A stretch of 64,000 nt of DNA from an uncultured bacterium. Lineage in GTDB: Bacteria; Verrucomicrobiota; Kiritimatiellia; RFP12; UBA1067. The DNA lies in contig CADCGZ010000012.1 in NCBI GenBank assembly GCA_902801025.1, positions 29,830 through 93,829 on the forward strand, read 5' to 3'. Position 1 is the first letter of the stretch. Each line of letters opens with the position of its first letter. The position numbers and the translations under genes were made by a program. This document shows, one piece after another, positions 7,978-31,231 of this stretch. The notes below the pieces were generated by a model, which ran no database searches, had not been told where the DNA came from, and saw only the letters and a program-made list of their open reading frames with translations.

Positions 7978-10900
7978 CTACCGTTTGCCGAACACGAAGT
8001 CGCTGAAGTCGCTGTCGCAGGAGGTGCCGACGGCCTTTACCGAATAGTAGTAGGTCTTGTCTGCTGCGCCACTTTCATCGGCGTAGGTCGTCTCCGTGGT
8101 GGTGTCGATCTCGACTGCGTAGTCGCTGCCGGTCCGCGTGCCACGGTAGACCCTGTAGTACGCCGCACCGTCGACCGACTGCCACGAGACCGTCACCGCC
8201 GCCGCGCCCGAAGTGGTCGTCGCCGTGACGCCCGTCGGCGCTGGAATCGAGCGGAAGCCCGTCTCGACGGCGCTCTTCGCGCTCTCGGAGACCGCATTCG
8301 TCGCCGTCACCCAATAGAAGTAGAGCGTTCCCGGCGCGGCGGTCGTGTCGTCGAACGAGACGGACGGGACAGCAGGGACGGACGACACGACCTCTGCCGC
8401 ATCTGGATTGTTCGAGGTGCCGCGATAGATCTTGTAGCCCTCCGCGCCGGGCGTCGCGTTCCACGACACCGTCACGCCCGTCGCCGACGTGCCGTCCGTC
8501 GCGTACACGCCCGTCGGTGCGCCGATCTTGAGGCTGCCGGCCGCGCCCGCGCTGTAGCCGCTCGCGTTCCGGCCCTCGCCGTCCGCCGCCGCCACGACGA
8601 AGTACCAGTACGTCACGCCCGGCTCGGCGGTCGTATCGGAATAGTTGAGCGCCGTCTGCCAGCCGCTGACCGGCGTCTTCGAGCCGCTTGCCGACGCGCT
8701 ACGGTACACGCGGTAGTGGCTGGCCTCCGCCACGGCGTTCCACGCGATCTTGACGCGGTCGGCGAAGCCGCCGTTCGAAGCCGTCACGCCTTCCGGCACC
8801 GCAAGGCGCAGATAGCCGACGTCCGAAGCAGACGCCTCGCCCTCGAAGCTCGCGCCAACCGCGACGACCCAGTAGTTGTAGGTGACGCCGTTCGCCGCAT
8901 TGAGATCCATCCAGCTCGTGCCTGCCGAAGTCCCGACCTCGACGGCATCTTCCACGAACTCCGTCGTCGCGCGGAGAATACGGTACGAAACCGCACCCTC
9001 AACCGCGTTCCACGTCACCGTGATCCAGTCCGCGGACGTGCCGTCGGACGCCGCCACGTTCCTCGGTACGCCAATCTTGCGGTTTCCGGCCGCGCTTGCG
9101 CTCGTCATCCACTCGCCGCCGTTCGCCACGGAGACAATCCAGTAGTAGTACCACGTGCCGGGAAGCGCCGTTGCGTCAACGTACGCCGTGTCCGCCGTGG
9201 ACGCAAGCAACGTCGCCTGGCTGAAGTTGTCGACCGTCGAACGGTAGATGTTGTAGCCAACCGCCCAATCGACGGCGCTCCAGGAGATCGACACGTCCCC
9301 GGCGGATGTCCCCGCCGTCGCCACGACATCCCGCGCAACGCCAGGTTCGCCCATCGTAACTGTCACCTTGAAGAAGCGATGTTCCTCGTTCACCGGAATT
9401 ACCCACGCCGTATCGGTCAGGTTCGTCTTGCCCATCACCGTGTAGTGGCGCTTCGGTTCGGCGTTCGAGAGATCCGGCGTCCACGAGACCTCAACCTCGC
9501 CGTCCGCTCCAACATGAATGTCGGCCAGCAACTGCGAGTCGGGATCCCACGGATCGAATCCCGCGACCCACGATTCCCAGAGCGGAATGCCGTTGTCGCC
9601 AACCTGCACCATTTTCGACTGAAGCGACTCGGGCGTCGAATCTTCGTCCACGTACCCGTATGCGCCGAGCCATTCGACCGGCACCGCCGCGTCCGTCCCT
9701 TCCACAGGCACATTGCCCAGCCCCGTCGGGAGCGTGAACTCGTACGCGCCGATATCGACGATGCCGTTCTGGATGCGCGCGTTGCCGCGAATGTCCGTCT
9801 CGCCCGAGACATACCTGTTGTTGCCCATGTCGATGCACGGCGAGTCTCCCAGCAGACGGAAGTCGCCGTTCGCCGCATCCACGAAACGCGGATTGCCCGT
9901 GAAACTGTTGAAGGACGCCATGCGCGAGTCGATATTATTGTCCGAGGTGCCAGCGCTGTTTCCATAAACGATGCAGTTGTAGTTCGTGCTAACGGACACT
10001 CCATCAACAAGCCATGCATGCGTCCCGCCGCTATTGTAGCCGCAACGGTTATCGTAAATGGTGCAGTTCCGGCAAACAGAACGCGAAGCACCGCCACCAG
10101 CACCCTCGGTCGCGCAGTTCCCGTAAATGAGGCAATTCTCCAATTCTGAATCATACGCTCCGCCACCGTACCCCGTACTTATCAGTGCGCATTCGTTATC
10201 GGTAATAACGCATTTGGAAACTGTTGCACTATTAATTCCGCCGCCACTAACGGATGCAGTGTTGTTGCTGACGACACAGCCATACAGGCTTCCGCCATAG
10301 GCGCCACCTCCGTGTGTCAACGCCACGTTGCCCTGGAGGACACAGTTCGTCACAGCCGCAGCATACGTTCCGCCACCAGACTTCTCCGCGCGATTTGAAA
10401 TCACAGAACAGTTAACCAGCACACCGCCACTGGCACCCGCGCCATTTGTTGGGCAACTATTGTTGATGAACAAACAGTCGTAAGCCATCGCCGAATGTGA
10501 ACCTCCGCCACTGTTCCCGCACGAGTTCCCTTCCACCGTGCAATGATAAAGCGCAGAGTAGCAGGTACCGCCACCGCTACGCGCAGCACGGTTTGAGACA
10601 ACAAGACAGTCGTATAGCGAGCCACCATAAACGCCGCCGCCGTCAAACGGAGTTGAATATCCGTTCTGTATCGTAAATCCGCGAAGAACGGTATTCGTCA
10701 TGGATGCCGTTGCGGAATAACCCGACAACCTTGCGCACATCGCCGTGTTACCGCCGTCGATGATAGTCCGCTCAGCGCCGTTCACCGACTGGATGGTGAT
10801 CGACTTGTTGTTCGAGTTGATCGGGGCGTACGTGCCGTCCGCGACAATGATCGTCATTCCCGCAACCGACTGGTCGATCGCGTGCTGGATCGTCTTGAAC

Positions 10901-13900
10901 GGCTGCGCCGCGCTGATACCTTCGTTCGCGTCGTTGCCGTTCGTCGCATCCACGTACCACGTGTCCGTCCACTTGGCGGAGAGCGTCACCACCGCGCCGT
11001 CGTTCGTCGCGATGTTGAGCACCTGCTGCCTGTTCGTGTAGGACACGGTCGCCGAGTCCCCTCCCGTCGTCCAACCCACGAATCCGAAGCCTTCCTTCGT
11101 GAACGCATTCGCCTTGAGGTTGACCGCCGTGTCGTATGTCGCCGCCTGGTCCGACATCGCACCTTCCGCGCCGTTCGGCAGGAAGCGGATCGTGTAGGCG
11201 TTCGGACGCCACACGGCGTAGAGCGCGAGCGTACCGCCCGTCGCGAGGTTCGAGACGGATGCTCCGTCCGCGTAGGCCGCGCTCGTCGCCTGCGGGTTCG
11301 TGGACCAGCCGAGGAACGTGTAGCCCGTCCGCGTGTAGCTTCCGTTCGACAGGTTCTGCGCCGTGCCGTAGGTGAAGCCCTGCGAGGCCATCGCGGCGCC
11401 CGTGCCGCCGTTCGCGTTGAACGTCACCGTGTACGGATTCGCCGTCCACACCGCGTAGAGGTTGACCGTCCCGTTCGCCGTCGCTGTCAGGTTGCTCACC
11501 ATCTGCTTGTTGGCGTATGCCGCATCCCCGTCGGCGGACGTCGCCCAGCCCTGGTACGTGTAGCCCGTGCGCGTGAACGCATTCGCCGTCAGCGCCTTCG
11601 CGGCATCGTAGGTGAACGACTCGTTCGCCATCGTCCCCGTGCCGCCGTTCGCGTTGAACTTTACCGCGTAGGTGTTCGCCTTCCAGACCGCGTACAGGTT
11701 GATTGTCCCGTTCGCCGCCGCCGTCAGGTTGCTCACCGTCTGCTTGTCGGAATAGACCTTGCTTCCCGCAGCCGTCGTCGCCCAGCCCTGATAGGCGTAG
11801 CCTGTGCGCGTGAAGGCGTTCGCCGTCAGCGCCTTCGCGACATCGTAGGTGAACGACTCGTTCGCCATCGTGCCCGCGCCCTTGTTGGCGTTGAACTTCA
11901 CCGTGTAGCCGTTCGCCTTGTAGGTCGCGGTCAACGTCACCGCGCGTCCCGGCATCTTGAACGTGGTAGAGGCGGACGTCTTGCTCGTCACCAGCGCGAC
12001 ATCGGCCGCAGCGCCCGTCCACTCCTTGAACGAGTATCCCGTCGGCGCGGCGTTTGCGACGATCGGCACCGTGGTGTTCGCAAAGCAGTTCGTACTGCCC
12101 TTGCCGCCCGCGACTGTCAGCTGGTACTTCAACCGATAACCGGAGTCGCTTGCACTAACTTTTCCGCGCTTGCCGTCGACCTGAGCCTGAACCCAAAGCC
12201 AATAGAGATTTGTCGTGTTCGCACTCGTGTGATACATGTTCGTCGTCGACCAATTCATCGTCACGGCATCCGAAAAGTTTGGCGTCTCACTCTTCCATAT
12301 CAAATATTTCTCCGCACCAGGCACCGCCGTCCATGTAAGGAGAATACCATCCGGATCCGTTCCGTCAGACGCCGCAAGGTTCACCACCTGGTTCTGGCTG
12401 AAGTTCGCGAAGTTAACGACGGCGCGGAAACCACGTAGCGTGTCGGTAAAATATGCCTGATTCCTCAATCTGTGTGCACCCGAACGGCAATGCGAGGAAT
12501 AATTACCCCAGGTACCACCACGTATGCTTCTCTCGGACCCAGTTTCTCGGCCTACAGGATCCGTTGCAGTACTTGAAGTTACGGTCCCAAACCAGTCGAG
12601 GCAGAACTCGCCCACATTACCGTGCATATCATAGAGTCCCCAAGCATTGGGCAGATACGAACCAACCTTCGCCGTTCCCGTCTCATCCGTACTCCCATTA
12701 TAGTCATACGAATTATTGTATGATCCGCTGTTGTAGTAGTAACGGCCCACTTCAGCCATGTTGGCATCAACACCGGAAGCAGTCGAAAGGTTCTTACCGG
12801 AATTGAGCGCCGTCGTCGTTCCTGCACGGCATGCATATTCCCACTGCGCCTCGGTCGGGAGGTCGAAGAGCCGCCCCGTTTTTGTACGTAACTTGCCCAT
12901 GAAGCTCGTCTCGTCAACCGAATTCATCTGCGGCCAGTACTTGCCCATGTCCGAGCCACGAATCTGGTTATAGCTGACGCTTTCGACAGGGCGTGTCGCA
13001 TAGCAAACCGTGTTCGAGAATGCGCTCGGACGATTCCCCATCACCAATTCCCACTGGCGCTGGGTCAGTTCGAATACGCCAATGTAGTAGGAATGCGTCA
13101 ACGTCACCTGATGCGGCGTCTCATCGCTATCCAACCGTCCAGCCTCGCCAGTCGGCGCACCCATCGTGAACGTGCCTGGGTCGATGCGGCGGAGAACGAG
13201 CTTCGTCGTCTTGTACTCGTCCGTCCAGCCGCCGGACGGGATGTCCGTGAGGTTGCTGACGGGATACGACGCCGCGTTCGGTCCGCCGCTCAGGTCGATG
13301 ACGAGATACGACTGCAGGTCGTCGTACTCCGCCGTGAACGAGAGGTTGCGCGTGGGCATCGTGAACGTGTTCGTCATGCTGTTGGCGTTCGCGAGCACCG
13401 AGACGTCGCCCGTCCAGCGCGTGAAGGCGTAGCGCGGCGAACGGTCCTCGGCCGCCACGGTCACCGTGTCGCCCTCGTAGTAGATCGCGCCGCCCGTGCC
13501 GTTCGCCACCTGGACGGTGAAGTTCGTGTCGTCCGACGCGGAATACTCGTACGCGCCGATATCGACCGTATTGTTGTCGATGCGCGCGTTCCCCGCGAAG
13601 TCCACCGTGTTCGTCACATACGCGTTGTTGCCCGCGTTGATGCACGGCGAGTTGTACCGCAGGCGGAAATCCCCCGCCTCCGCGCGGATGAACTGCGGAT
13701 CGTTCGTGTAGCAGTTGAAGGACATAACGCGAGTGTCGATTTCATTGTCCGTCCCAGCCGTATTGCCATAAACGATGCAATTGAAGTTGGTTGCGCTCGG
13801 CACACCGTCCCAAAGCTCGCTGCTCACACCGCCACCGCGGCCACCACAAGAATTGTCGTATATTGTGCTGTTTATCGCAATGGCGCTGGCTATGCCGCCA

Positions 13901-16503
13901 CCATTTTCATTTGGTGCCTTGTTTCCATATACAATGCAGTTCTGCAATTCTCCGCGGAACACACCGCCGCCCCAGCGTCCACATTCATTATCGGCGATAA
14001 TGCAATTATAGCACTTGCCGCTACTAGTGCCGCCGCCATGAATTGTTGATTTATTGCTCGTGATTTCCGAATCGTAAATAGTCGCACCATACGCACCGCC
14101 GCCCCAGCCATACGACTCATTGCCGACGATAACGCTTTTTATAACGGTGCCGGCGCGCACACCGCCGCCATGCTGCCATGAGACATTATTGGTGACAATA
14201 CAACCATAAAGGCTGCTTCCATTAACACCGCCACCGTGTTCCAGCGCCTCATTACACTGAAAAACACAATTCGTAGCGAAACCGCCATACACACCGCCGC
14301 CGGTTTTTTCCGCACGGTTTGAGATCACCGAGCAGTTGATCAACACACTGCCATTGGCACCCGCGCCACTTGCCTCGCACCTATTGTTGGAGAGCAGACA
14401 GTTTTCAAGCTGGCTACGATATGCGCCGCCACCATCGGCCTGCGCGTCGTTATCGCAAATCGTACAGTCATACATCACGGAGTGTGCCACGCCGCCACCA
14501 CATCCGCCAGCATGGTTAGATTTTACAACGCAATCGTACAGCGTACCGCCTGCAACACCAGCGCCGTTTATTCCGCTTGAAAGTCCGACAGAGCATCCAT
14601 TCAGCATGGTAAATCCGCGAACAACCGTATTGGTCTTATCGTTATTTCCACCCGCATACACGCACCGATTCGTCACCGCCGGATATCCACCGTCGATGAC
14701 CGTCGTCGCCGCGCCGTTCACCGACTGGATGGTGATTGCTAGGTTATCCGTGCGAATCGGTGCATACGTGCCATCCGCTACGAAGATCGTCATCCCGGCC
14801 ACCGACTTGTCGATCGCGTGCTGGATCGTCTTGAATGGATCATTCTCGCTCGCGCCCTCGTTCGTGTCGTCGCCCGACGTCGCATCCACATACCAACGGT
14901 CCGTCCACTTGGCGTAGAGGTTCACCGTCGCGTTCATCTGGTTGGTCAGGTTCAGCACCGACTGCTTGTCCGTGTAGGCGACCGTCGTTCCGTTCGCCGA
15001 GGTCATCCAACCGACGAAGGCATGTCCCGTGCGGGTGAAGCCGTTCGCCGTGAGCGTCGCGTTCTGTCCGTAGGTGCAGGCGAGCTGGGCCGTCGTGCCG
15101 CTGCCGCCGTTCGCGTTGAACTTCACGGCGTAGGTGTTCACCTGCCACACGGCGAAGAGGGTGACCGTGCCGTTGGCCGTCGCCGTGAGGTTGCTGACGG
15201 ACTGTCCGTTCGTGTAGGCCGCGCTCGTCGCGCCGCTGGAGGTCGCCCATCCCTTGAACGTGTAGCCCGTGCGCGTGAAGGCGTTCGCCGTCAGCGCCTT
15301 GGCCGTGCCGTAGGTGAACGACTCGTCCGCCATCGTACCCGTGCCGCCGTTCTTGTTGAACTTCACGGAATACGTGATCGGCGTCCACTGGGCCGTCACC
15401 GTCTTCGCGCCGAAGCCGCCGGCGGGGATGCTGGCGGGGTTCCAGCCGTTGAACACGTAGCCCGTCACGTTCGCCAGAGGGGTGAAGGTGATGGAGCTGT
15501 CGATGTTGTACTGCGCGGGGTTTGAGTTCGCCGCCCCCTTCGTGTTCGCGTAGGTGATGGCGTAGTACCCCGAATGCTTGAACGTGGCCGAGTAGTTGGC
15601 CGTCCCCGCCGTGTAGGTCAGCTTCCAGTAGTTCGTCTGCTCCGAGTTGGGCGTCCACGAATAGGCGCCCTTGCTCGAAAGCCCCGACACCGCCGTGCCG
15701 TTGACCTTGAGCGTACCCGACGACGCCCCGCCCCAGGCCGTATCGTAGGCGATGGATTCCGTCGTCTTCGCGACGCGCGTCCCCGTGCGCGTATCGAGCG
15801 CAACCGCCGAAGCCGCCTTCGCCGCCGACATGGATTTTACCGGGCGGAGCGGGAAACCATAAATGCGAGAAGTCGTATTCGTTGCACGCCAAACTCTATT
15901 TCCAGAACCAACCGTAATCCTCCGGGTTCCTACAGAATCTGCGGTCGCACTCCACAAATAAATCGTGTCGACTTTATTGGTCGTTGTACCATCGCCATAT
16001 CCCATCGCCGGAATGAATACACTGTTGCCAGCATAGAGACCTTTGCCTACAATTGTATAACCAACCACCCCATTGTTGGTCGTCCAGTTCCATGAACATA
16101 GCGCCAACAGATTTTCTATCTCGGATGCCTTCGGCACGCGCCAGTCGTCACCCCATTGCTGCGCCGCAGCATCGTAGGCAGGCAGAAGATTGCCGTCCGC
16201 GCCTACAACACCCATCGACTGCAGCTGCGCGAGCGACTTCCCGTATGTCGGACAGTTCGCCGTGCTGAAGCTAAAGTTGTTCACCGAACTGTCGCTTGCG
16301 ACCCATTTGGAGTTCTGCCACTTGTAGCCGAGCGTATCGCCCCACCAGAAGTAGTAGCCCGTCTCCGTAGGCGAGTTCGCGCCGACATTAGTCTTGGCCC
16401 ACAGCAGACCGTTCTCCCAGAGCTGCACGCCCTCGTGCGTCGCGCCAAAGACGCCACACACCCAGGCCAGCACCGCGCCAAGCGCCATAATCTTTCTTTT
16501 CAT
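7978..16503 (-). CDS. Giant modular secreted/surface protein (~2,841 aa)
   Basis: Signal peptide MKRKIMALGAVLAWVCGVFGA after AGGAAA. Domains in order: DUF1566/Fib_succ_major-like N-domain, InlB-B/Flg_new-type repeats (YTVKFNANGG), two beta-helix domains each ending in a choice-of-anchor-Q-like DIGAYE segment, an FGE-sulfatase domain (LPTEAQWEYACRAG, GLYDMHGNV), and Fn3-like repeats. Confidence 0.88.
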   Translation of the reverse strand: MKRKIMALGAVLAWVCGVFGATHEGVQLWENGLLWAKTNVGANSPTETGYYFWWGDTLGYKWQNSKWVASDSSVNNFSFSTANCPTYGKSLAQLQSMGVVGADGNLLPAYDAAAQQWGDDWRVPKASEIENLLALCSWNWTTNNGVVGYTIVGKGLYAGNSVFIPAMGYGDGTTTNKVDTIYLWSATADSVGTRRITVGSGNRVWRATNTTSRIYGFPLRPVKSMSAAKAASAVALDTRTGTRVAKTTESIAYDTAWGGASSGTLKVNGTAVSGLSSKGAYSWTPNSEQTNYWKLTYTAGTANYSATFKHSGYYAITYANTKGAANSNPAQYNIDSSITFTPLANVTGYVFNGWNPASIPAGGFGAKTVTAQWTPITYSVKFNKNGGTGTMADESFTYGTAKALTANAFTRTGYTFKGWATSSGATSAAYTNGQSVSNLTATANGTVTLFAVWQVNTYAVKFNANGGSGTTAQLACTYGQNATLTANGFTRTGHAFVGWMTSANGTTVAYTDKQSVLNLTNQMNATVNLYAKWTDRWYVDATSGDDTNEGASENDPFKTIQHAIDKSVAGMTIFVADGTYAPIRTDNLAITIQSVNGAATTVIDGGYPAVTNRCVYAGGNNDKTNTVVRGFTMLNGCSVGLSSGINGAGVAGGTLYDCVVKSNHAGGCGGGVAHSVMYDCTICDNDAQADGGGAYRSQLENCLLSNNRCEASGAGANGSVLINCSVISNRAEKTGGGVYGGFATNCVFQCNEALEHGGGVNGSSLYGCIVTNNVSWQHGGGVRAGTVIKSVIVGNESYGWGGGAYGATIYDSEITSNKSTIHGGGTSSGKCYNCIIADNECGRWGGGVFRGELQNCIVYGNKAPNENGGGIASAIAINSTIYDNSCGGRGGGVSSELWDGVPSATNFNCIVYGNTAGTDNEIDTRVMSFNCYTNDPQFIRAEAGDFRLRYNSPCINAGNNAYVTNTVDFAGNARIDNNTVDIGAYEYSASDDTNFTVQVANGTGGAIYYEGDTVTVAAEDRSPRYAFTRWTGDVSVLANANSMTNTFTMPTRNLSFTAEYDDLQSYLVIDLSGGPNAASYPVSNLTDIPSGGWTDEYKTTKLVLRRIDPGTFTMGAPTGEAGRLDSDETPHQVTLTHSYYIGVFELTQRQWELVMGNRPSAFSNTVCYATRPVESVSYNQIRGSDMGKYWPQMNSVDETSFMGKLRTKTGRLFDLPTEAQWEYACRAGTTTALNSGKNLSTASGVDANMAEVGRYYYNSGSYNNSYDYNGSTDETGTAKVGSYLPNAWGLYDMHGNVGEFCLDWFGTVTSSTATDPVGRETGSERSIRGGTWGNYSSHCRSGAHRLRNQAYFTDTLRGFRAVVNFANFSQNQVVNLAASDGTDPDGILLTWTAVPGAEKYLIWKSETPNFSDAVTMNWSTTNMYHTSANTTNLYWLWVQAQVDGKRGKVSASDSGYRLKYQLTVAGGKGSTNCFANTTVPIVANAAPTGYSFKEWTGAAADVALVTSKTSASTTFKMPGRAVTLTATYKANGYTVKFNANKGAGTMANESFTYDVAKALTANAFTRTGYAYQGWATTAAGSKVYSDKQTVSNLTAAANGTINLYAVWKANTYAVKFNANGGTGTMANESFTYDAAKALTANAFTRTGYTYQGWATSADGDAAYANKQMVSNLTATANGTVNLYAVWTANPYTVTFNANGGTGAAMASQGFTYGTAQNLSNGSYTRTGYTFLGWSTNPQATSAAYADGASVSNLATGGTLALYAVWRPNAYTIRFLPNGAEGAMSDQAATYDTAVNLKANAFTKEGFGFVGWTTGGDSATVSYTNRQQVLNIATNDGAVVTLSAKWTDTWYVDATNGNDANEGISAAQPFKTIQHAIDQSVAGMTIIVADGTYAPINSNNKSITIQSVNGAERTIIDGGNTAMCARLSGYSATASMTNTVLRGFTIQNGYSTPFDGGGVYGGSLYDCLVVSNRAARSGGGTCYSALYHCTVEGNSCGNSGGGSHSAMAYDCLFINNSCPTNGAGASGGVLVNCSVISNRAEKSGGGTYAAAVTNCVLQGNVALTHGGGAYGGSLYGCVVSNNTASVSGGGINSATVSKCVITDNECALISTGYGGGAYDSELENCLIYGNCATEGAGGGASRSVCRNCTIYDNRCGYNSGGTHAWLVDGVSVSTNYNCIVYGNSAGTSDNNIDSRMASFNSFTGNPRFVDAANGDFRLLGDSPCIDMGNNRYVSGETDIRGNARIQNGIVDIGAYEFTLPTGLGNVPVEGTDAAVPVEWLGAYGYVDEDSTPESLQSKMVQVGDNGIPLWESWVAGFDPWDPDSQLLADIHVGADGEVEVSWTPDLSNAEPKRHYTVMGKTNLTDTAWVIPVNEEHRFFKVTVTMGEPGVARDVVATAGTSAGDVSISWSAVDWAVGYNIYRSTVDNFSQATLLASTADTAYVDATALPGTWYYYWIVSVANGGEWMTSASAAGNRKIGVPRNVAASDGTSADWITVTWNAVEGAVSYRILRATTEFVEDAVEVGTSAGTSWMDLNAANGVTYNYWVVAVGASFEGEASASDVGYLRLAVPEGVTASNGGFADRVKIAWNAVAEASHYRVYRSASASGSKTPVSGWQTALNYSDTTAEPGVTYWYFVVAAADGEGRNASGYSAGAAGSLKIGAPTGVYATDGTSATGVTVSWNATPGAEGYKIYRGTSNNPDAAEVVSSVPAVPSVSFDDTTAAPGTLYFYWVTATNAVSESAKSAVETGFRSIPAPTGVTATTTSGAAAVTVSWQSVDGAAYYRVYRGTRTGSDYAVEIDTTTETTYADESGAADKTYYYSVKAVGTSCDSDFSDFVFGKR

Positions 16504-16543
16504 CGTTTTTTCCTTTCTAAAACCTTTCATGCCGCCTCCTTTG

Positions 16544-16579
16544 CTTTGAACTTTCGTGCGTCCGCACAAAAGTTCAAAG
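16544..16579. promoter_or_regulatory. Inverted repeat between the divergent giant-protein and ATPase genes
   Basis: ctttgaactt-tcgtgcg-tc-cgcacaa-aagttcaaag. Confidence 0.5.
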
Positions 16580-19677: not shown

Positions 19678-22254
19678 CTAATTTCCATAACTTATGATTG
19701 GGCGGATTTGGTATCCAGCGTATCTAGCAAAGGTCTTGGAAGTAATTGTCCAGTCGTATTCATAAAGTTGGTGCCCATCTGCATCTTCATGCCTATGAAA
19801 CATCCCCCATGCGCCAGTAGAAGTCGCTATAGCAGAAGAAGTAGGAGTATCGGAACACCAACCAAAAAGCAATTGCCCCCCGCCATTTCGCGTCCACCCA
19901 GATTTGAATGATGTCCCTGTACCAACACCTGCAAACGGAATGAAAATACTCTTCGATGCATAATCCCCCTTGCCAGTGATAAGCACTCCACTCACCCCGT
20001 TACGAACAGTACATTCGCAAGTTGTGTTAGCACGAAGTTCCGAAACATCACTACTAGTCGGCATTCTCCACGGAGCGCCAAGGTATTTGGTCGCCGCATC
20101 ATGGGCCGCAACTAGGCTACCATTGCCATCAACCCAACCAGAACTCTGCAATTGTGCAAGTGATTTGTTGTAATTGGGACAATTTGTGCTTGCGAACGAA
20201 AAGCCTGTCACGGAGCCATCAACCGCATTCCAACTATCTCCAACTCGTTTATATCCAACCGTGTCCCCCCACCAGAAGAAGTATCCTGTTCCTTGCGGTG
20301 TTGTTGCACCAAGATTGTTCTTAGCCCAATACGGACCGCCTTCCCATAGCTGCACGCCTTGAGGATCCCACACCGCGTACAGGTTTTTCGTGCCAGAAGC
20401 CGCAAGGTTCTTCACGGTCTGTCCGTTTGTGTATTTCGCAGAGGTTGCATCGGCAGTGTCGGCCCATCCCTTGAAGGTAAAACCATTTCGCGTAAACGCA
20501 TTTGCAGTGAGCGCCTTCGAGACGTCGTAGGTGAAACTCTCGACCGGCATCGTGCCGGAGCCGCCGTTGGCGTTGAACTTGACGGTGTAGGTGTTGGGCG
20601 TGTAGGTTGCCTCGTACGCCACGTCGCGCGACGGGATGGTGAGCGTTGTACTCGCTGATGTCGCGCTCGCAAGGAGACCCGTGTCGGCAGTTGTGCCAGT
20701 CCAGCTCGCGAAGGTGTAGCCCGTCTTGGCCGCCGCTGCGATCGTGACGGACTTACCCTGCACGAACGACCCGGATCCCGTGCCGCCCGTCACGTTCACC
20801 TGGAAGTTCTTCTCCGTCACCTTCGCGGTCACGGCGAAGGAGGAAAGCGTTACCTGCCCCAAGTCGGCGAAGGCGTCCCACACGAACCGCCGCGTGCCGG
20901 GCTGGACCTCCAGCGTGCGGTTGTTCTCACTGGGATTGCCGACGTAGAATGTCCGCGCATTGAGGTTCGTGTTGCCCTTCGTGTCCTTAACCTCGAACGA
21001 GACAGTGCTCAGTCCGCTCGCCGCAAAGGTGACGTCTATGTCGACGAGTCCGTTCCACGGATACCGCTGGCGCGCCGTGACCGAGGTGACCTCAAGGACG
21101 AGTTTCCACACCGCATAGAGATTCACCGTGCCGTCCGGCGTCGCCGTGAGGTTGCTGACGCTCTGCTTGTTGCTGTAGGTCGCCGTTGTCGCGCTCGCCG
21201 ACGTTGCCCATCCCATGAACTTGTAGTTCACGCGCTGGAACGCGTTCGCCGTCAGCGCCTTGGCCACATCGTAGGTCATCGCGAGGTTCGCCATCGTGCC
21301 CGTTCCGCCGTTCTTGTTGAACTTGATGGTGTAGGCGTTCGCCTGCCACACCGCATAGAGATTGACCGTTCCGCCCGAGGTCGTCGTCAGGTTCTTGACG
21401 CTCTGCCCGTCGTCATACGCGGTGGTGGTAGCGGATGCACTCTTAGCCCAGCCGATGAATATGTAGCCCGTGCGCGTGAAGGTGTTGAGCGTAAGCGCCT
21501 TCGCCGTGCCGTACACAAAGCTCTCGTTCGCCATCGACCCCGTGCCGCCGTTCGCGTTGAACTTCACCGTGTAGGGCTGCCCGTCGTACGAAGTGCCGCC
21601 GCCAGATTCACCGCCGCCCGATCCGCCGCCCGAGGAGCTCGCGCGGTAGCCGGTGTTGTAGGAGCTCGTGATGTTTCCGGACGACTTCACGGCAACAATC
21701 CAGTAGTAGTAGGTCGTGCCGGCCACTGCGGTCGTATCGGTATAGGAGGTTCCAGTGACCGTCGTGAGCTGGTTAGCGTACTCGAAGTTGGAAGTATTGC
21801 CGCGCACTACGCGATAGCTCGTCGCGCTAGTCTGCGCCGACCAAGTGATGATGACGCCGGCCGTCGACGTGCCGTCCGAGGCATTGATCGAAAACGACCC
21901 GCCGGACGATCCGCCGCCGCCGCTGCCGCTTGCCGCAGTGGCCATGCCGCTGATCGCATGAGCGCCAGAGCTGTCCCAAGCCTCGACCCAGTAGTAGCAG
22001 GTGTCGACTCCGGCCTGGCTGTCGGTATAGGATGTGCCTGTCGGGGTTCCCAGCGTTGATGCAGAACTAGACGACGCGGTCCAGCTGCGCTTGACAACAT
22101 AATAGGAAGCGCCGCTGACCGACGTCCACGCCAGGCTTACGGACGTCGATGAAGTCCGTGTACAGGACGTTATGCTCGGAGCCGAAATGGCCAGGGCATT
22201 AAAGCCCACGAGCGCCAGACCCAACAGGATCAAACCGCGAATTTTGTTCATCAT
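19678..22254 (-). CDS. Modular secreted/surface protein (858 aa)
   Basis: Signal peptide, two Fn3-like units, Gly/Ser linkers, three InlB-B-type repeats, a RQRYPWNGLVD module, and a C-terminal domain homologous to the N-domain of the giant protein. Confidence 0.88.
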   Translation of the reverse strand: MMNKIRGLILLGLALVGFNALAISAPSITSCTRTSSTSVSLAWTSVSGASYYVVKRSWTASSSSASTLGTPTGTSYTDSQAGVDTCYYWVEAWDSSGAHAISGMATAASGSGGGGSSGGSFSINASDGTSTAGVIITWSAQTSATSYRVVRGNTSNFEYANQLTTVTGTSYTDTTAVAGTTYYYWIVAVKSSGNITSSYNTGYRASSSGGGSGGGESGGGTSYDGQPYTVKFNANGGTGSMANESFVYGTAKALTLNTFTRTGYIFIGWAKSASATTTAYDDGQSVKNLTTTSGGTVNLYAVWQANAYTIKFNKNGGTGTMANLAMTYDVAKALTANAFQRVNYKFMGWATSASATTATYSNKQSVSNLTATPDGTVNLYAVWKLVLEVTSVTARQRYPWNGLVDIDVTFAASGLSTVSFEVKDTKGNTNLNARTFYVGNPSENNRTLEVQPGTRRFVWDAFADLGQVTLSSFAVTAKVTEKNFQVNVTGGTGSGSFVQGKSVTIAAAAKTGYTFASWTGTTADTGLLASATSASTTLTIPSRDVAYEATYTPNTYTVKFNANGGSGTMPVESFTYDVSKALTANAFTRNGFTFKGWADTADATSAKYTNGQTVKNLAASGTKNLYAVWDPQGVQLWEGGPYWAKNNLGATTPQGTGYFFWWGDTVGYKRVGDSWNAVDGSVTGFSFASTNCPNYNKSLAQLQSSGWVDGNGSLVAAHDAATKYLGAPWRMPTSSDVSELRANTTCECTVRNGVSGVLITGKGDYASKSIFIPFAGVGTGTSFKSGWTRNGGGQLLFGWCSDTPTSSAIATSTGAWGMFHRHEDADGHQLYEYDWTITSKTFARYAGYQIRPIISYGN

Positions 22255-22601
22255 CTCTTCATTCCCCCGCGCCTTTCCTTTACGAGGCCCGACACCCTCG
22301 GCGCAGAAAAGAAGAGTGGCGTGCCTTTAAATCCATGTCTTGTAGAGGCATCGCCAAACGCCCGTAGTTAAACACGATTATAAGACACGCCACGTGATTG
22401 CACACGCGACGCATCTCACATACTCGGCTTAACTACTGAAAATTGGCGATTTTCTACAAAGCCAAATACGCAAGATTGCGTACGTCGGCGGATGTTGCCA
22501 CCCGCCCTTGGCGGACTCCGCGTTTCGCGTGCCGCCGCTCCCGGGCCATCCTGCACCCGGGAGTATGGGAAAGATCAATGTCGTGCGGTTTCCCGCAAGA
22601 C
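22255..22601 (-). ncRNA. Candidate ~350-nt structured 5' leader RNA
   Basis: Five consecutive hairpins plus two crossing long-range helices, lying between a predicted promoter and the ATG at 22254. Confidence 0.6.
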
Positions 22602-22607
22602 GGTGAA

Positions 22608-22637
22608 ATTATACTACATCCGCCCTTCCGCCGTCAA
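22608..22637 (-). promoter_or_regulatory. Sigma70-like promoter
   Basis: TTGACG (22632-22637), 18-nt spacer, TATAAT (22608-22613). Confidence 0.7.
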
Positions 22638-22694
22638 ATCGCAAAATTAAAAAATCAAAGCGCGGTTAAATGAGATTATGGTGCGGACGAAATC

Positions 22695-23020
22695 ACATAT
22701 CCCCCGACGACCGAAGGGAGGAGCCGCGAAGCATATCCACCGACCGAAGGTCGCTGCCGAAGGCAGTCGCTAGAGTGGTGGCGCTATGCGGGGTGCGGAT
22801 GTGTCGCGGCAAGGTTAAGCGAGCTGACGGAACGTCGGCGAGCGCAGATGCTGCGAAGAAAAACGCACCTTATGGAAGGTGAGGCAAGGGACGAGGGGGC
22901 GAGTGCCGAACTGAGCGACATGCAACGACGCGGTTCTTCGGATGCGCGGTGAGACACGTCGCAAGGCGAGGAGGTGTATTCACCGACGAAGCATTGCGGC
23001 GCGTATCGCCGCGAAGACGA
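22695..23020. repeat. Cluster of REP-like palindromic elements
   Basis: gaccgaaggtc and ctgccgaaggcag hairpins, plus a long imperfect palindrome centred on ggtgtattcacc. Confidence 0.5.
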
Positions 23021-23095
23021 CGAGAGCGGCGGCGCAGGGAGCGTGAGAGAGGCCGAGACCCCGAGCACCGCGCCGAACTCCCGAGGGTGCCAAGC

Positions 23096-23277
23096 GCGGC
23101 CACGGTTCGGGTCGGTTAGCGGAACGGACCGAAGCAGGGGGAGGCGAGTTGCGCAGGACTCGACCCCGACGGCGTATATGTATACGCCGAGCGGGTCGAA
23201 GGACGCGCAAATCGCCCGCCCTGCACAGGGAGTACCGTTACCCGAACCGTGGCCGCACACCCGAACCGTGGCCGCAC
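23096..23277. mobile_element. MITE-like palindrome with 17-bp terminal inverted repeats and a duplicated right arm
   Basis: gcggccacggttcgggt (23096-23112) matches acccgaaccgtggccgc (23240-23256, repeated at 23259-23275); centre ggcgtata-tg-tatacgcc. Confidence 0.6.
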
Positions 23278-23347
23278 GTTGACAGGCAAACCAGCACAGC
23301 TAGCGAGCGCTAAACCGAAACACGCCCCGCCGCGGACGCGCCACCAC

Positions 23348-24520
23348 TTACAAACTCGCTATGCGCTTGGCGAGACGGGGGAGGCCGGGGTCGCGCGCAC
23401 CAGCCGTCGCAAACGCGGCGTATTTGCCGCGGCGAGCCGCAATCCAGTCGAACGCCGCATCAAGATCTCCGACGAGCTCGACGCGCGAGGGGTCAAGCTT
23501 AGCCGCAAGCGCGTCGGAGTTTATCGAGCGGTCGGTCGTGCCGCCCGCATCGTAGACGGGAAGCAAAAGCAGCTTGTCCTGCGGGCGAATCACCTCGGCA
23601 AACATGTCGGCGAGATCGTCCTTCATCTTGCGAAGTGGCGCGTAGCCGTGGGGACGCCAAACGACGCAAAGTCCGCCCGGATAACGCTCGGCAAGCGTCA
23701 GCCACATCGCGCGAAGCTTCTCGGGATTGTGCGCGTAGTCATCGTAGACACATTCGCCATACTTCTGCAACCGGCGCTCGACGCCGCCAAAACTCTCCAT
23801 CGCCTTCTCCGCCTCGGCGCGGTCACAGCCAAGCGCGACTGCCATGCGGACTGCGAGCGAGGCGTTCTGGCTGTTGAAGTCCTGCGGGCGGTAGGTTTCG
23901 CCGCGAGCGTCGACGACGGGACCTGGGCAGTCCTTCACGAAAGCGTCGAAGACTTCGTCCATCTCCTCCTTCGAGTAATGGTCGGCTGAAGCGTTCGTCA
24001 CGATTGCGGCATAGGGGCTAAACGCGACGAGAGACTTGTCGCTTTCATCTACCTCTGCAACGGCATATTCTCCCTTCCCGAACCTGACAGCCCCCTGCCA
24101 GCCGGGGACGTTCGCGCCGTTGACGCACATCGGGTCGAGCCCACATGTCGAAAGCACGTGGCCGAGCATCGCGGTGACGGTTGACTTGCCGCAAGTGCCG
24201 ACTACGGCGACGAGCTTGTAGCCGGAGAGCGCGCGGGCGAGGGCCTTAGCACGATGGGTCACAGGGATTCCAAATTCCTTGGCACGCGCAAGCCCGGAAT
24301 TCGTGTCCTCAATCGCAGTAGAAACAATTACCTCGTCAGTGGACGCGTCGATTCCGCTGCCGTCGTCAGGGAAGCAGCGGATGCCAAGAGAGCCGAGAAA
24401 TCTTATGTTCGGAGTGTCGAGATTGCGATCGGCGCCGGTCACTTCGTCGCCGAGACGGACAAGCGCCGTCGCGAGCGCACTCATGCCGACGCCGCCGATT
24501 CCGATAAGATGTCGCTTCAC
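23348..24520 (-). CDS. murC: Mur ligase, UDP-N-acetylmuramate-L-alanine ligase-like
   Basis: GTG start overlapping the upstream stop; HLIGIGGVGMSALA, GTCGKSTVT, EVDESD, GVERR and DDYAHNP motifs. Short (390 aa). Confidence 0.75.
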   Translation of the reverse strand: MKRHLIGIGGVGMSALATALVRLGDEVTGADRNLDTPNIRFLGSLGIRCFPDDGSGIDASTDEVIVSTAIEDTNSGLARAKEFGIPVTHRAKALARALSGYKLVAVVGTCGKSTVTAMLGHVLSTCGLDPMCVNGANVPGWQGAVRFGKGEYAVAEVDESDKSLVAFSPYAAIVTNASADHYSKEEMDEVFDAFVKDCPGPVVDARGETYRPQDFNSQNASLAVRMAVALGCDRAEAEKAMESFGGVERRLQKYGECVYDDYAHNPEKLRAMWLTLAERYPGGLCVVWRPHGYAPLRKMKDDLADMFAEVIRPQDKLLLLPVYDAGGTTDRSINSDALAAKLDPSRVELVGDLDAAFDWIAARRGKYAAFATAGARDPGLPRLAKRIASL

Positions 24521-29773: not shown

Positions 29774-31231
29774 TTACCAGCAGCCAGGAAGCCCCATCTT
29801 GCCGGGATTCATGATTCCGTTCGGGTCGAGCTTCGCCTTGAGGCTCTCGAGAATCGGCATCGCGGTGCCGTAGAGGTCCTTGACGTAGCGGCCGAGCTTG
29901 AGCCCTACGCCGTGGTGCTCGTTGATGACGCCGCCTTCGCGGATTGCCGCGCGGATCGCCTTGTCCCACACCGCGTTGTAGAGCGCGGCCGCCTCCTCGG
30001 CGTTCGGCGGAACCTTGTCGCCAGGGAAGATGAAGCGCGCATAGAGCATGCAGCCCCAGTCGTACCAGTGCGAGAAGTGTCCGATGAAGCGGGCATCGGG
30101 GAACTCCTTGTTCACGACCTTCTTCATCGCCCAGTAGACGTTCTCGATGTGCGAGAAGTCCGCAACCGTGTCGAGCGTTCCGAACGCCTGCGGAACGTGG
30201 AACATGTAGCCCGGGTAGAAGAACTTGTACTTGTTCTCCCACCACCACTCGCCGCCCTTCGAGCCCAAGTCCTTGCCGTGGAACTGCTTCTCCATGATTT
30301 CGCGTGCGTACTGCATCTGGAGGTCTACGATCTTCTCGCGTCCGTCGAAGCCGAACACGAGGTACGCGCCCTTGTCGAGGTCGATGCCGAAGACCTTCGA
30401 GACGTGCGTCTTCGTCTCGGTCTCGTCGTAGAGGCGCATCGCGCAGGGCCCTAGGCGCGAGCGCATGAGCGTCTGGCCGGCCTGCATCGCGGTGTGGAAG
30501 TCCTTGAAGATGTAGGCGCGGAACTTGCGGGCCTCGGGCTGTGGATGGATCTTGAGCGTCACCTCGGTGATGACGCCGAGCGTGCCCTCGCTGCCAAGGA
30601 ACATCATCGTGAGGTCTGGGCCCGACGCGTGGCGCGGCACCGGGAGCGTGCGGATGATCTCACCGGTCGGAGTGACGACTTCAAGCGACATCACCATGTC
30701 CTCGATCTTGCCGTACTTCGTCGAAAGGACGCCAGTTCCGCGGTGCGCGAGGAAGCCGCCGATCGTGGAGCACGAAATCGAGGCGGGAAGGTGCATCGTC
30801 GAAAGGCCCTCCTTGTTGCAGCCCCACTCAAGGTGCTTCGTAATGATGCCGGTCTGAGCGGTGACGGTCAGCGCCTCCTTGTCGATCTTGATGATCTTGT
30901 TCATGCGCTTCATGTCGAGGACGATGCCGTTGTAGATCGGAAGCGCACCGCCCTGCGAACCCGAACCGCCGCCCCACGGAACAACGGGAATCTTGTACTG
31001 GTTCGCGATCTTCATGACGCGCGCGACTTCCTGGGTCGTCGCGGGATGGACGACGAAGTCGGGCTTCGGGCACTCTCGGCCGCGGTCGTGCCACATCTCT
31101 GGAATCCAGTAGTAGTCGATGGAGTGGCCGAACTTGTCCGCGAACTTCACGTCCACGAACTCGTCGCCCACGACGTCGGTGAGCTCCGTCCGAATCATCT
31201 CGAACATGTAGCTGTCAGGCTTGATCTTCAT
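29774..31231 (-). CDS. FAD-binding oxidoreductase (GlcD/alkyl-DHAP synthase-like)
   Basis: PWGGGSGSQGG, TIGG, GSEGTLGVITE, HHGVG and DPNGIMNPGK motifs. Confidence 0.9.
   Translation of the reverse strand: MKIKPDSYMFEMIRTELTDVVGDEFVDVKFADKFGHSIDYYWIPEMWHDRGRECPKPDFVVHPATTQEVARVMKIANQYKIPVVPWGGGSGSQGGALPIYNGIVLDMKRMNKIIKIDKEALTVTAQTGIITKHLEWGCNKEGLSTMHLPASISCSTIGGFLAHRGTGVLSTKYGKIEDMVMSLEVVTPTGEIIRTLPVPRHASGPDLTMMFLGSEGTLGVITEVTLKIHPQPEARKFRAYIFKDFHTAMQAGQTLMRSRLGPCAMRLYDETETKTHVSKVFGIDLDKGAYLVFGFDGREKIVDLQMQYAREIMEKQFHGKDLGSKGGEWWWENKYKFFYPGYMFHVPQAFGTLDTVADFSHIENVYWAMKKVVNKEFPDARFIGHFSHWYDWGCMLYARFIFPGDKVPPNAEEAAALYNAVWDKAIRAAIREGGVINEHHGVGLKLGRYVKDLYGTAMPILESLKAKLDPNGIMNPGKMGLPGCW

Follow-up and report, generated by a model that had tools for sequence, protein, structure and literature searches.

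What occupies the non-coding gap in front of a surface-protein gene of an uncultured bacterium, and why should that gap hold two long inverted repeats whose arms cross each other? The question is raised by a 64,000-nucleotide (nt) stretch of contig CADCGZ010000012.1 (GenBank assembly GCA_902801025.1, forward-strand positions 29,830 to 93,829; henceforth the window, in whose own numbering all positions are given), which comes from an uncultured member of the Kiritimatiellia (Verrucomicrobiota). The element in question sits between a Mur-ligase-like gene (end at 23348, minus strand) and an open reading frame (ORF; 19678-22254, minus strand) for a protein of 858 amino acids (aa), which has a signal-peptide-like N-terminus and Listeria-Bacteroides repeats (Pfam Flg_new, E-value 2e-30; Flg_new_2, 5.8e-12). 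Since both flanking genes lie on the minus strand, the element constitutes a 5' leader that is read on the minus strand.

An earlier reading of this locus made from its letters (the sequence-only reading) had proposed two crossing long-range helices that act as a terminator/antiterminator or translational switch, with an architecture like that of phage P4 CI and P1 C4 control. The present analysis places the leader RNA in an uncatalogued, many-copy family of gut Kiritimatiellia that is matched by no Rfam family, and whose conserved helices form two mutually incompatible sets of similar stability. This RNA probably switches surface-protein and anti-phage defence genes on and off.

Anatomy of the leader RNA and its two folds

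The core of the motif comprises approximately 190 nt (22486-22300, minus strand). A repeat finder recovered two inverted repeats in it, namely I1 (22350-22371 / 22429-22450; 22 nt, 77% complementary, 57 nt apart) and I2 (22316-22333 / 22376-22393; 18 nt, 83% complementary, 42 nt apart). The former extends into three perfect segments, A1, A2 and A3, of 6, 8 and 8 base pairs (bp), which are separated by internal loops of 2x3 and 6x6 nt and together span 22429-22458 / 22341-22371. Along the transcript the arms of the two repeats alternate (A, B, A', B'). Both crossing helices of the sequence-only reading, together with their interleaving, are thus recovered where it had placed them, as are the U-rich tract that it noted after the second helix and the last stem that it drew over a purine-rich tract close to the gene. 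The conserved helices assemble into two rival folds: fold X comprises the P1 hairpin, the three-segment long-range helix A:A' and the hairpin P4, and fold Y comprises a 26-bp extended Stem I and a complete Stem II. The component features are given below, with percentages denoting pairing among homologous copies.

22477-22483 / 22466-22472, minus strand: P1 hairpin (GTACGCA / TGCGTAT), 96.1% paired; its arms join the extended Stem I in fold Y
22459-22465 / 22424-22430, minus strand: Stem I, enclosing strand A, 90.5% paired
22453-22458 / 22341-22346, minus strand: A1:A1', 6 bp
22443-22450 / 22350-22357, minus strand: A2:A2', 8 bp
22429-22436 / 22364-22371, minus strand: A3:A3', 8 bp
22403-22417 (B0) / 22382-22396 (B), minus strand: P4 hairpin, proposed antiterminator, 96.3% paired; in fold Y, B0 pairs with the P1 region
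22316-22393, minus strand: Stem II, proposed terminator, enclosing strand A' and made up of B:B', B2 and P5; its middle part is 70.1% paired
22382-22393 / 22316-22327, minus strand: B:B' of Stem II, 12 bp, 97.0% paired
22376-22379 / 22330-22333, minus strand: B2 of Stem II
22370-22375 / 22335-22340, minus strand: P5 of Stem II; this end of the stem is 96.2% paired
22359-22362 / 22347-22350, minus strand: P6, small hairpin inside A', 99.1% paired
22305-22315, minus strand: U-rich tract TCTTCTTTTCT directly after B'; proposed terminator tail and/or anti-Shine-Dalgarno strand
22300-22304, minus strand: GCGCC, which pairs with GGCGC at 22269-22273 and so encloses the purine-rich tract
22285-22299, minus strand: B'', tentative third partner of B', with weak duplex support
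22255-22273, minus strand: GGCGC and purine-rich tract, the ribosome-binding region, which pairs with the U-rich tract (repeat I6, arms 22255-22270 / 22301-22316)

A 201-nt stretch folds at -87.2 kcal/mol, as against -58.1 +/- 4.2 kcal/mol in 200 shuffles (z = -7.0; none of the 200 as low), and the whole leader has a folding z of -6.4 relative to shuffles. The former value, taken together with the retention of both helices through compensatory changes in homologues, shows that the structure is more than a chance feature. A simple scan flagged the P4 hairpin (22379-22420, minus strand) as terminator-like, with 18 pairs followed by ATCGTGTTTA; it was not treated as a terminator because the T-rich run after P4 is the 5' arm of P5. 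An extension of A3 into Stem I-3' and P5-5', seen in the minimum-energy fold, was not kept by eye in a divergent subgroup and was not adopted.

The extended Stem I of fold Y has the whole P1 region and Stem I-5' on one side and Stem I-3', the joining region and B0 on the other. Forcing B:B' in the window's nascent 182-nt RNA refolds the leader into this fold. The two folds are close in energy, both in the window (X, -73.9 kcal/mol; Y, -71.8 kcal/mol) and on average across 77 copies (X, -77.5; Y, -78.7; difference, -1.2 +/- 6.2 kcal/mol), with X being the lower in 42% of them. The conserved nucleotides that lie in the internal loops of fold X form stems in fold Y (P6, the small hairpin Pa, the extended Stem I and Stem II); hence no conserved nucleotide was seen unpaired in both folds, with Pa, which is 69% paired, leaving part open. 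The architecture is unusually explicit in that almost all of its conserved nucleotides have two alternative partners. P6 presents A2' in an 8-9-nt loop, and A2 lies in the apical loop of Stem I/Pa. As these apical loops are complementary in fold Y, and as the internal loops (A1/A3 and A3'/A1') are so as well, loop-loop kissing is a likely route from Y to X.

In the sequence-only reading, the two crossing helices either formed a pseudoknot or excluded each other. Mutually exclusive folds do exist, but the direct rival of B:B' is P4, which that reading had not listed; the wiring is also different, in that the long helix A:A' shares a fold with P4, and the rival fold additionally unfolds P1 into the 26-bp extended Stem I.

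Covariation of the helices

Covariation was counted in a model-based alignment of 96 matches with 81 distinct rows. Across these 81 copies, the set formed by P1, Stem I, A1-A3 and Stem II is 90.8% paired, compared with 80.1% in shuffles and 38-45% when the partners are slid, and both-side changes are seen in 41 of its 56 pairs. Neither this degree of pairing nor the covariation score of 0.360 (0.169 in shuffles) was reached by any of 500 shuffles. The helices thus covary among homologues, which is the behaviour by which the sequence-only reading had proposed to check them. A model-based alignment leans towards the model's own structure, here P1, A and P4; in a MAFFT alignment fitted to no structure, the corresponding values are 89.9% versus 80.5% for pairing and 0.358 versus 0.197 for covariation. 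Furthermore, Stem I, Stem II, P6 and the extended Stem I lie outside the model structure, and their support is therefore independent of this bias.

Among the individual helices, covarying pairs make up 6 of 6 in A1, 7 of 8 in A2 and 5 of 5 in A3, with two A1 columns scoring low because the alignment slips in a hypervariable stretch. A2:A2' is 98.7% paired and has few alleles (for example, CG in 46 and UA in 34 copies at one pair). The same pattern is apparent among 16 copies from two genomes, in which A2 falls into a few alleles and the hypervariable A1 and A3, which have a single partner each, all differ. One pair of Stem I shows GC in 44, GU in 13 and CG in 12 copies. Of 97 sequences, 86 matched the search pattern for P6 and 11 did not; among the 86, the third pair is C-G in 75, G-C in 8 and U-A in 3, and mismatches are absent. 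The three parts of the extended Stem I are 88.7%, 89.5% and 92.2% paired, with double changes in 13 of 26 pairs; its conservation accounts for the strong sequence conservation of the P1 loop and the joining region.

The segments that compete for strand B show how one strand is held to two partners. B:B' has double changes in 6 of 12 pairs, and P4, its competitor, has both-side changes in 7 of 15 and is rich in G-U pairs (for example, UG 64, GU 69 and UG 53). Changes in B are matched in B', and B0 stays paired through G-U tolerance (alignment columns 174 and 175). The reverse strand scores 17-30 bits, compared with 110-197 bits for the sense strand. These strand-specific scores, taken together with the dependence of the helices on G-U pairs, indicate that the structure resides in the RNA of the gene's sense strand and is not a DNA site.

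Distribution of the motif

The window's own genome contains a second copy that is 81% identical in its upstream part, and five copies in all are found with a covariance model. Of 61 related genomes, 34 contain the leader by BLAST, often in several copies, with the matches splitting into query 33-176 (22628-22485, including the promoter) and query 177-360 (22484-22301, the switch). The covariance model (R1), built from 26 copies with a structure of P1, A and P4, matches 99 of 151 genomes of the same order, including 72 of the 94 high-quality ones, and is represented in 28 of 42 genera; a single genome contains as many as 11 copies, and the order about 385 matches (150 listed and 235 further). 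In a phylum-wide sample it matches 36 of 151 genomes, of which 13 belong to other orders of the class and eight to other classes. The matches in other classes are weak (E-values from 1e-8 to 4e-4), and the distant copies keep the same architecture. One of these distant copies occurs in a record titled Victivallis vadensis (metagenome-assembled genome, MAG), a species that we take to be cultured, and this homologue may permit experiments in a cultured species.

An exact 25-mer of the motif is present in 65 public stretches, of which 42 are titled Kiritimatiellae or Kiritimatiellia MAGs, nine 'uncultured bacterium', and seven Lentisphaerae, Lentisphaeraceae or Verrucomicrobia; the named hosts are ruminants or horses. 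The remaining seven are labelled as other phyla, having been binned as Gemmiger, Bacteroides, Bacteroidaceae, Acutalibacteraceae or Alistipes. As the distribution of the motif is otherwise strict, we suspect that these may be mis-binned Kiritimatiellia DNA, though this is a guess.

The sequence-only reading could assign the element to no known family, and this holds both for the window and for homologous loci. A search of Rfam release 15 with window positions 21500-23500 at E-values up to 10 gave no match between 22255 and 22700. Twenty homologous loci gave no match at the gathering threshold, and nothing fell on the motif in ten loci searched at E-values up to 1 or in 14 distant loci including that of Victivallis. 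Viral contigs (searched with two patterns), phage records and plasmid records contained no match to the motif, with the second pattern recovering 74 of 172 motif loci as a positive control. Literature searches on RNA motifs of Kiritimatiellae, Victivallis and Lentisphaerae returned no description, with the limit that survey supplements could list the motif under another name. The text of PMC11109978, exclusive of its supplements, yielded no mention of the terms sought. A 2010 survey of 104 motifs (PMC2864571) is of relevance here.

Genes downstream of the motif

An ORF follows on the same strand in 77 of the 81 distinct copies, the other four having too little downstream sequence. Pfam domains were sought at E-values up to 1e-5 in 72 downstream ORFs, a set that leaves out the window's own ORF, one near-duplicate and three ORFs behind partial copies of the motif; 38 contain a domain and 34 have no match. 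Two types of gene recur. The first, of surface or secreted type, includes proteins with BspA-type LRR_5 repeats (eight, one of them also with Flg_new), PA14, Sel1 and FGE-sulfatase domains. The second, of restriction or defence type, includes N6_Mtase/HsdM (five), SNF2/ResIII helicases (three, one with PLD) and FRG (three), along with BrxA, Z1, SacI endonuclease, SRA, NYN RNase, Gp49 and DUF2971. Other domains found are a protein kinase, two glycosyltransferases, AraC, CBS, TM2 and DUF4236. The gene context of these 72 ORFs points to no single metabolite or pathway. Both types are represented in the window's own genome, where two strong copies precede secreted-looking proteins, and three divergent copies (31-38 bits, with a different P1 and a shorter P4) precede an N6 methylase, a SacI-type endonuclease and an unassigned ORF.

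Both types of gene that recur behind the motif, adhesin-like surface proteins and restriction/defence systems, are regulated by DNA inversion in other gut bacteria. A tentative extension of this association is that the motif might serve as the sensor of a regulon-wide switch, in which one signal would flip approximately ten copies per genome and co-ordinate anti-phage defence, including restriction-modification, with adhesin-like surface proteins. We regard this as possible but doubtful. Candidates for this signal are a second messenger, an RNA-binding protein dedicated to the task, and loop-loop contacts between leaders with an A2 allele in common. If true, such a switch would represent a new class of signal-responsive RNA and, to our knowledge, the first leader-RNA control of defence systems. 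A specialised NusG paralogue of the RfaH, LoaP or UpxY type was considered as a partner and rejected, because its presence does not track the motif: the window's own genome has two NusG matches, four genomes with 10-11 motif copies each have one, and five genomes without a motif match have two.

The gut and rumen Kiritimatiellia are mostly uncultured, and our literature searches, as far as the sources were accessible to them, found nothing published on gene control in this class. If the leader is a regulated switch, it would give experimental access to the way in which these bacteria adjust phage defence and their cell surface, and would constitute a natural intramolecular kissing-hairpin toggle.

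Proposed mechanism and output

We consider it reasonably probable that the leader is a cis-acting bistable attenuator and/or translational switch that is transcribed with the surface-protein gene. The structured leader, the exclusive helices, the U-rich tract and the stem over the ribosome-binding region uphold the structural part of the switch proposed in the sequence-only reading; from their arrangement we infer the functional part, namely that transcription terminates, that the ribosome-binding site becomes occluded, which way the regulation runs, and that a signal tips the balance. In fold X, P4 would hold the 5' arm B of the terminator and leave B' free, such that no terminator forms and the polymerase reads on (ON). 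The free B' may pair with B'', and so hold the U-rich strand off the ribosome-binding site. In fold Y, the P1 region and B0 would be zipped into the extended Stem I, freeing B to pair with B' in Stem II, whose closure might be seeded by P5 and B2. The GC-rich Stem II followed by the U-rich tract would then cause premature termination (OFF), and in transcripts that escape, the U-rich tract and GCGCC would pair with the purine-rich ribosome-binding region, which is again OFF. Candidates for what tips the balance are a protein, a small molecule or the kinetics of folding.

On the output side, the U-rich tract lies directly 3' of B' in nearly all aligned copies, and this tract and the next five bases (GCGCC in the window) pair with a purine-rich tract that lies 20-30 nt further on and immediately precedes the start codon. 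RNAalifold returned no consensus pairs on 73 downstream segments, a result attributable to variable loop lengths and to the consequent mis-alignment of the segments by MAFFT; the downstream pairing was hence judged from per-sequence duplex energies relative to shuffles. In 73 copies the duplex of U-rich and purine-rich tracts has a mean energy of -17.9 kcal/mol and a mean z of -2.78, with z below -2 in 63%, and its closing pairs covary by eye (for example, GCGCC/GGCGC versus CGTCA/TGACG). The position of B'' is consistent across copies.

DNA sequencing runs from bovine and other gut metagenomes contain the stretch, and RNA was sought in four metatranscriptome runs, taken as contigs. Two of these runs, X15 and X16, which come from two studies, contain one leader contig each, covering 22321-22521 with two differences and 22321-22517 with four, respectively. 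Both stop at 22321, just before the U-rich tract, and no RNA contig was found on the coding region 21900-22240 in the four runs. As contigs cannot show true RNA ends, this is a weak hint that leader transcripts stop near the proposed terminator. The other RNA runs show mainly conserved parts of relatives and were not used as evidence.

Several observations weigh against a two-state switch of this kind. The energy gap between the folds varies widely from copy to copy (-16 to +16 kcal/mol), and the minimum-energy fold of the window joins P4 with the anti-Shine-Dalgarno hairpin, such that the simple ON/OFF chain is not predicted by thermodynamics alone. Stem I, P5 and A:A' use different nucleotides, and a single pseudoknotted fold might accommodate them all. 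Pairing reaches just 70.1% in the middle of Stem II and 69% in the small hairpin Pa, and the shuffle controls overstate significance, since related genomes are not independent. The B':B'' duplex is weak (mean -13.1 kcal/mol, mean z -1.17; z below -2 in 27%). The expression evidence comes from contigs, in which true RNA ends are not visible, and DNA may be carried over into RNA libraries. A scan of 20 kb of the surrounding sequence showed no excess of terminator-like sites (14, compared with 16.6 +/- 4.2 in shuffles), so that the use of classical intrinsic terminators by this organism is not supported. Compared with the hairpin of a classical terminator, Stem II is also much longer and more branched. 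The last two points together suggest that translational control via the U-rich tract may be the main output.

Alternative explanations

One alternative accepts most of the helices and dispenses with their rivalry. The leader might form a single compact, pseudoknotted sensor, either a new riboswitch or a protein-dependent attenuator, which binds a small molecule or protein and in which only P4 versus B:B' switches. In such a fold Stem I, P5, A1 and A3 would meet in a four-way junction, and A2:A2' would close a ring as an intramolecular extended kissing complex. Consistent with this, Stem I, P5 and A1-A3 use separate nucleotides and are all conserved, their strands are joined with zero linker as in a perfect four-way junction, and the occurrence of many copies before recurring gene classes is regulon-like. 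However, the conserved loop nucleotides (GAAAA, UUUUC, GGCG and UGCC) are all paired in alternative local hairpins, and a search for the signature of a metabolite pocket found no conserved nucleotides that stay unpaired in every fold, with the partly open Pa (69% paired) as the limit on that result. P6, whose covariation includes three pair types, excludes the 8-bp A2:A2' helix unless the two loops merely kiss, and the complementarity of P1 and B0 over their whole length is left unexplained by one fold. The gene context indicates no metabolite, and the ring geometry is hypothetical. We consequently hold the single-fold sensor to be unlikely.

The remaining explanations, namely a purely constitutive structure, a phage-type immunity RNA and DNA inversion, are all unlikely, and to an increasing degree. 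The leader could be a constitutive structured 5' untranslated region, or a small RNA set free at the U-rich tract, with a role in stabilising or processing the mRNA; the alternative helices would then be only folding intermediates. The presence of RNA contigs on the leader and not on the coding region would fit this, and base pairing alone can explain all of the conservation. Nevertheless, two complete and exclusive pairing sets of near-equal energy are kept across 77 copies, conserved positions keep several partners (with changes in B being compensated in B' and wobble-tolerated in B0), and the link between the U-rich tract and the ribosome-binding region recurs in front of very different genes, all of which makes a constitutive role quite improbable.

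The likeness to phage P4 CI and P1 C4 drawn in the sequence-only reading implies a trans-acting, immunity-type RNA, in which a fragment processed from the leader would terminate nascent transcripts by pairing with sites on them. The paired sites do lie in one leader, and the few A2/A2' alleles shared by several copies of one genome make cross-talk between loci conceivable. Against it stand the lack of an Rfam match, of phage genes among 21 neighbouring ORFs, and of any match in the viral, phage or plasmid collections, a result on which a phage or plasmid origin was likewise rejected. Moreover, each copy has its own A1 and A3, which pair in cis, and the element is chromosomal, multi-copy and cis-oriented. 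The phage-type reading thus finds no support in these comparisons, and we consider it very improbable.

Least credible is a DNA-level invertible promoter (inverton) or recombination site that phase-varies surface and restriction genes as in the Bacteroidales: the repeats do flank a 57-nt segment that contains a TATAAT in the window (22379-22384), and the genes served are of typically phase-varied classes, but the middle segment has one orientation in 91 of 91 assembly matches of at least 90 bits, the A1/A3 arms are hypervariable even within one genome while the non-complementary internal loops are conserved, the helices are G-U dependent and strand-specific, homologues do not keep the TATAAT, covariation (B:B') links segments outside the repeats to others inside them, and no recombinase domain was detected in the 21 neighbouring ORFs scanned. 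The single orientation, the variable arms and the non-conserved TATAAT led us to reject both an inverton and an internal promoter; the partial reverse-strand matches of 17-30 bits at the same places arise because the repeat is symmetric.

Relationship to known systems

The logic of a bistable leader, as favoured here, resembles that of an attenuator or riboswitch expression platform, and its architecture that of a kissing-hairpin antisense system contained in one molecule. Attenuators and riboswitch platforms work through chains of alternative hairpins (1:2, 2:3 and 3:4 in trp) that set a terminator against an antiterminator. The leader is similar to these in its location in a 5' leader on the sense strand, in its chain of two-partner segments (the P1 region, B0, B, B' and the U-rich tract), in having a U-rich tract after a GC-rich stem, and in an optional connection to the ribosome-binding site. 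In particular, B:B' and the U-rich tract lie upstream of an ORF, and a conserved alternative helix, P4, uses the arm of the proposed terminator. It differs in having no leader peptide, tRNA-binding features, recognised aptamer or Rfam match. Its proposed terminator is a branched stem of about 26 bp, whose 29-nt loop is complementary to a loop approximately 80 nt upstream, and its genes are of adhesin-like and defence types and do not belong to one metabolic pathway.

Kissing-hairpin antisense systems include CopA/CopT of plasmid R1, RNA I/RNA II of ColE1 and the four-way-junction 'extended kissing complex'. Comparable features of the leader are hairpins with fully complementary apical loops of 7-8 nt (A2 and A2') and adjacent complementary strands that can extend the contact beside intact lower stems. 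Unlike in those systems, both hairpins are in one transcript, there is no antisense gene, and the element is not on a plasmid; as the kissing would be intramolecular, this is a likeness of mechanism to CopA/CopT and not membership. The phage P4 CI and P1/P7 C4 immunity RNAs likewise link complementary leader sites to premature termination; complementary sites are present in the leader and premature termination is proposed for it, but it has neither an Rfam match nor a phage context, and its pairing is in cis and copy-specific. Finally, invertible promoters of the Bacteroidales phase-vary surface and restriction-modification genes. The motif shares with them the kinds of genes served, the many copies per genome and the inverted repeats, whereas its structure is at the RNA level and strand-specific, the 91 strong matches include no inverted copies, and its arms are not conserved.

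Promoter-like site, upstream modules and neighbouring features

The gene, the promoter-like site and a second leader module complete the putative transcription unit.

19678-22254, minus strand: presumed controlled gene, identified from the ORF and its Flg_new matches; start codon ATG at 22252-22254
22608-22637, minus strand: promoter-like site TTGACG-18-TATAAT, 11 of 12 matches; predicted start near 22601
22487-22600, minus strand: upstream leader module ('module 1', type c) with three hairpins, defined by separate BLAST matches; 22487-22628 with the promoter

The promoter-like site is the sole sigma-70-like site in 22100-23400 (one found versus 0.3 +/- 0.6 in shuffles), and its TATAAT is invariant in all eight aligned copies of the upstream module. 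It fits the transcription start near 22601 that the sequence-only reading had assumed. The consensus of module 1 has three hairpins with few covarying pairs, and the module is separable from the switch, with other loci having quite different structured modules at that place (the observation covers six loci besides the window). A hairpin with GGGTGGGCAACCTAACC in its loop closes one such type, and GGAGCC...GAAA hairpins occur in another. Each upstream module type occurs before both surface and defence genes, and the modules may be alternative sensors that feed one switch. Some of them bear a likeness to domains 5 and 6 of group II introns, which was rejected because no Rfam match was obtained (gathering threshold, 20 loci; E-values up to 1, ten loci).

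Further upstream, the 1.1-kb non-coding gap that contains the promoter also holds a long GC-rich hairpin (23092-23260, minus strand), which has chance-level Rfam matches (MIR1437, E-value 0.015; h2cR, E-value 2). Between the two, the segment 22696-22790 (plus strand) contains two direct repeats (CATATCC-CCGAC-CGAAGG...) and a stretch that resembles, in the opposite orientation, the upstream leader module of another locus. Metatranscriptome contigs of relatives accumulate here, at a depth of up to 248 (run X18), and the segment might represent what is left of a leader module, or a copy of one that is transcribed divergently.

Downstream of the 858-aa gene, in the same orientation and with four unassigned ORFs between, lies a giant ORF for a protein of 2863 aa (7978-16569, minus strand) with Listeria-Bacteroides repeats, an FGE-sulfatase domain, fn3 and DUF1565. 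The region from the 858-aa gene through this ORF may form one long surface-protein operon under the leader.

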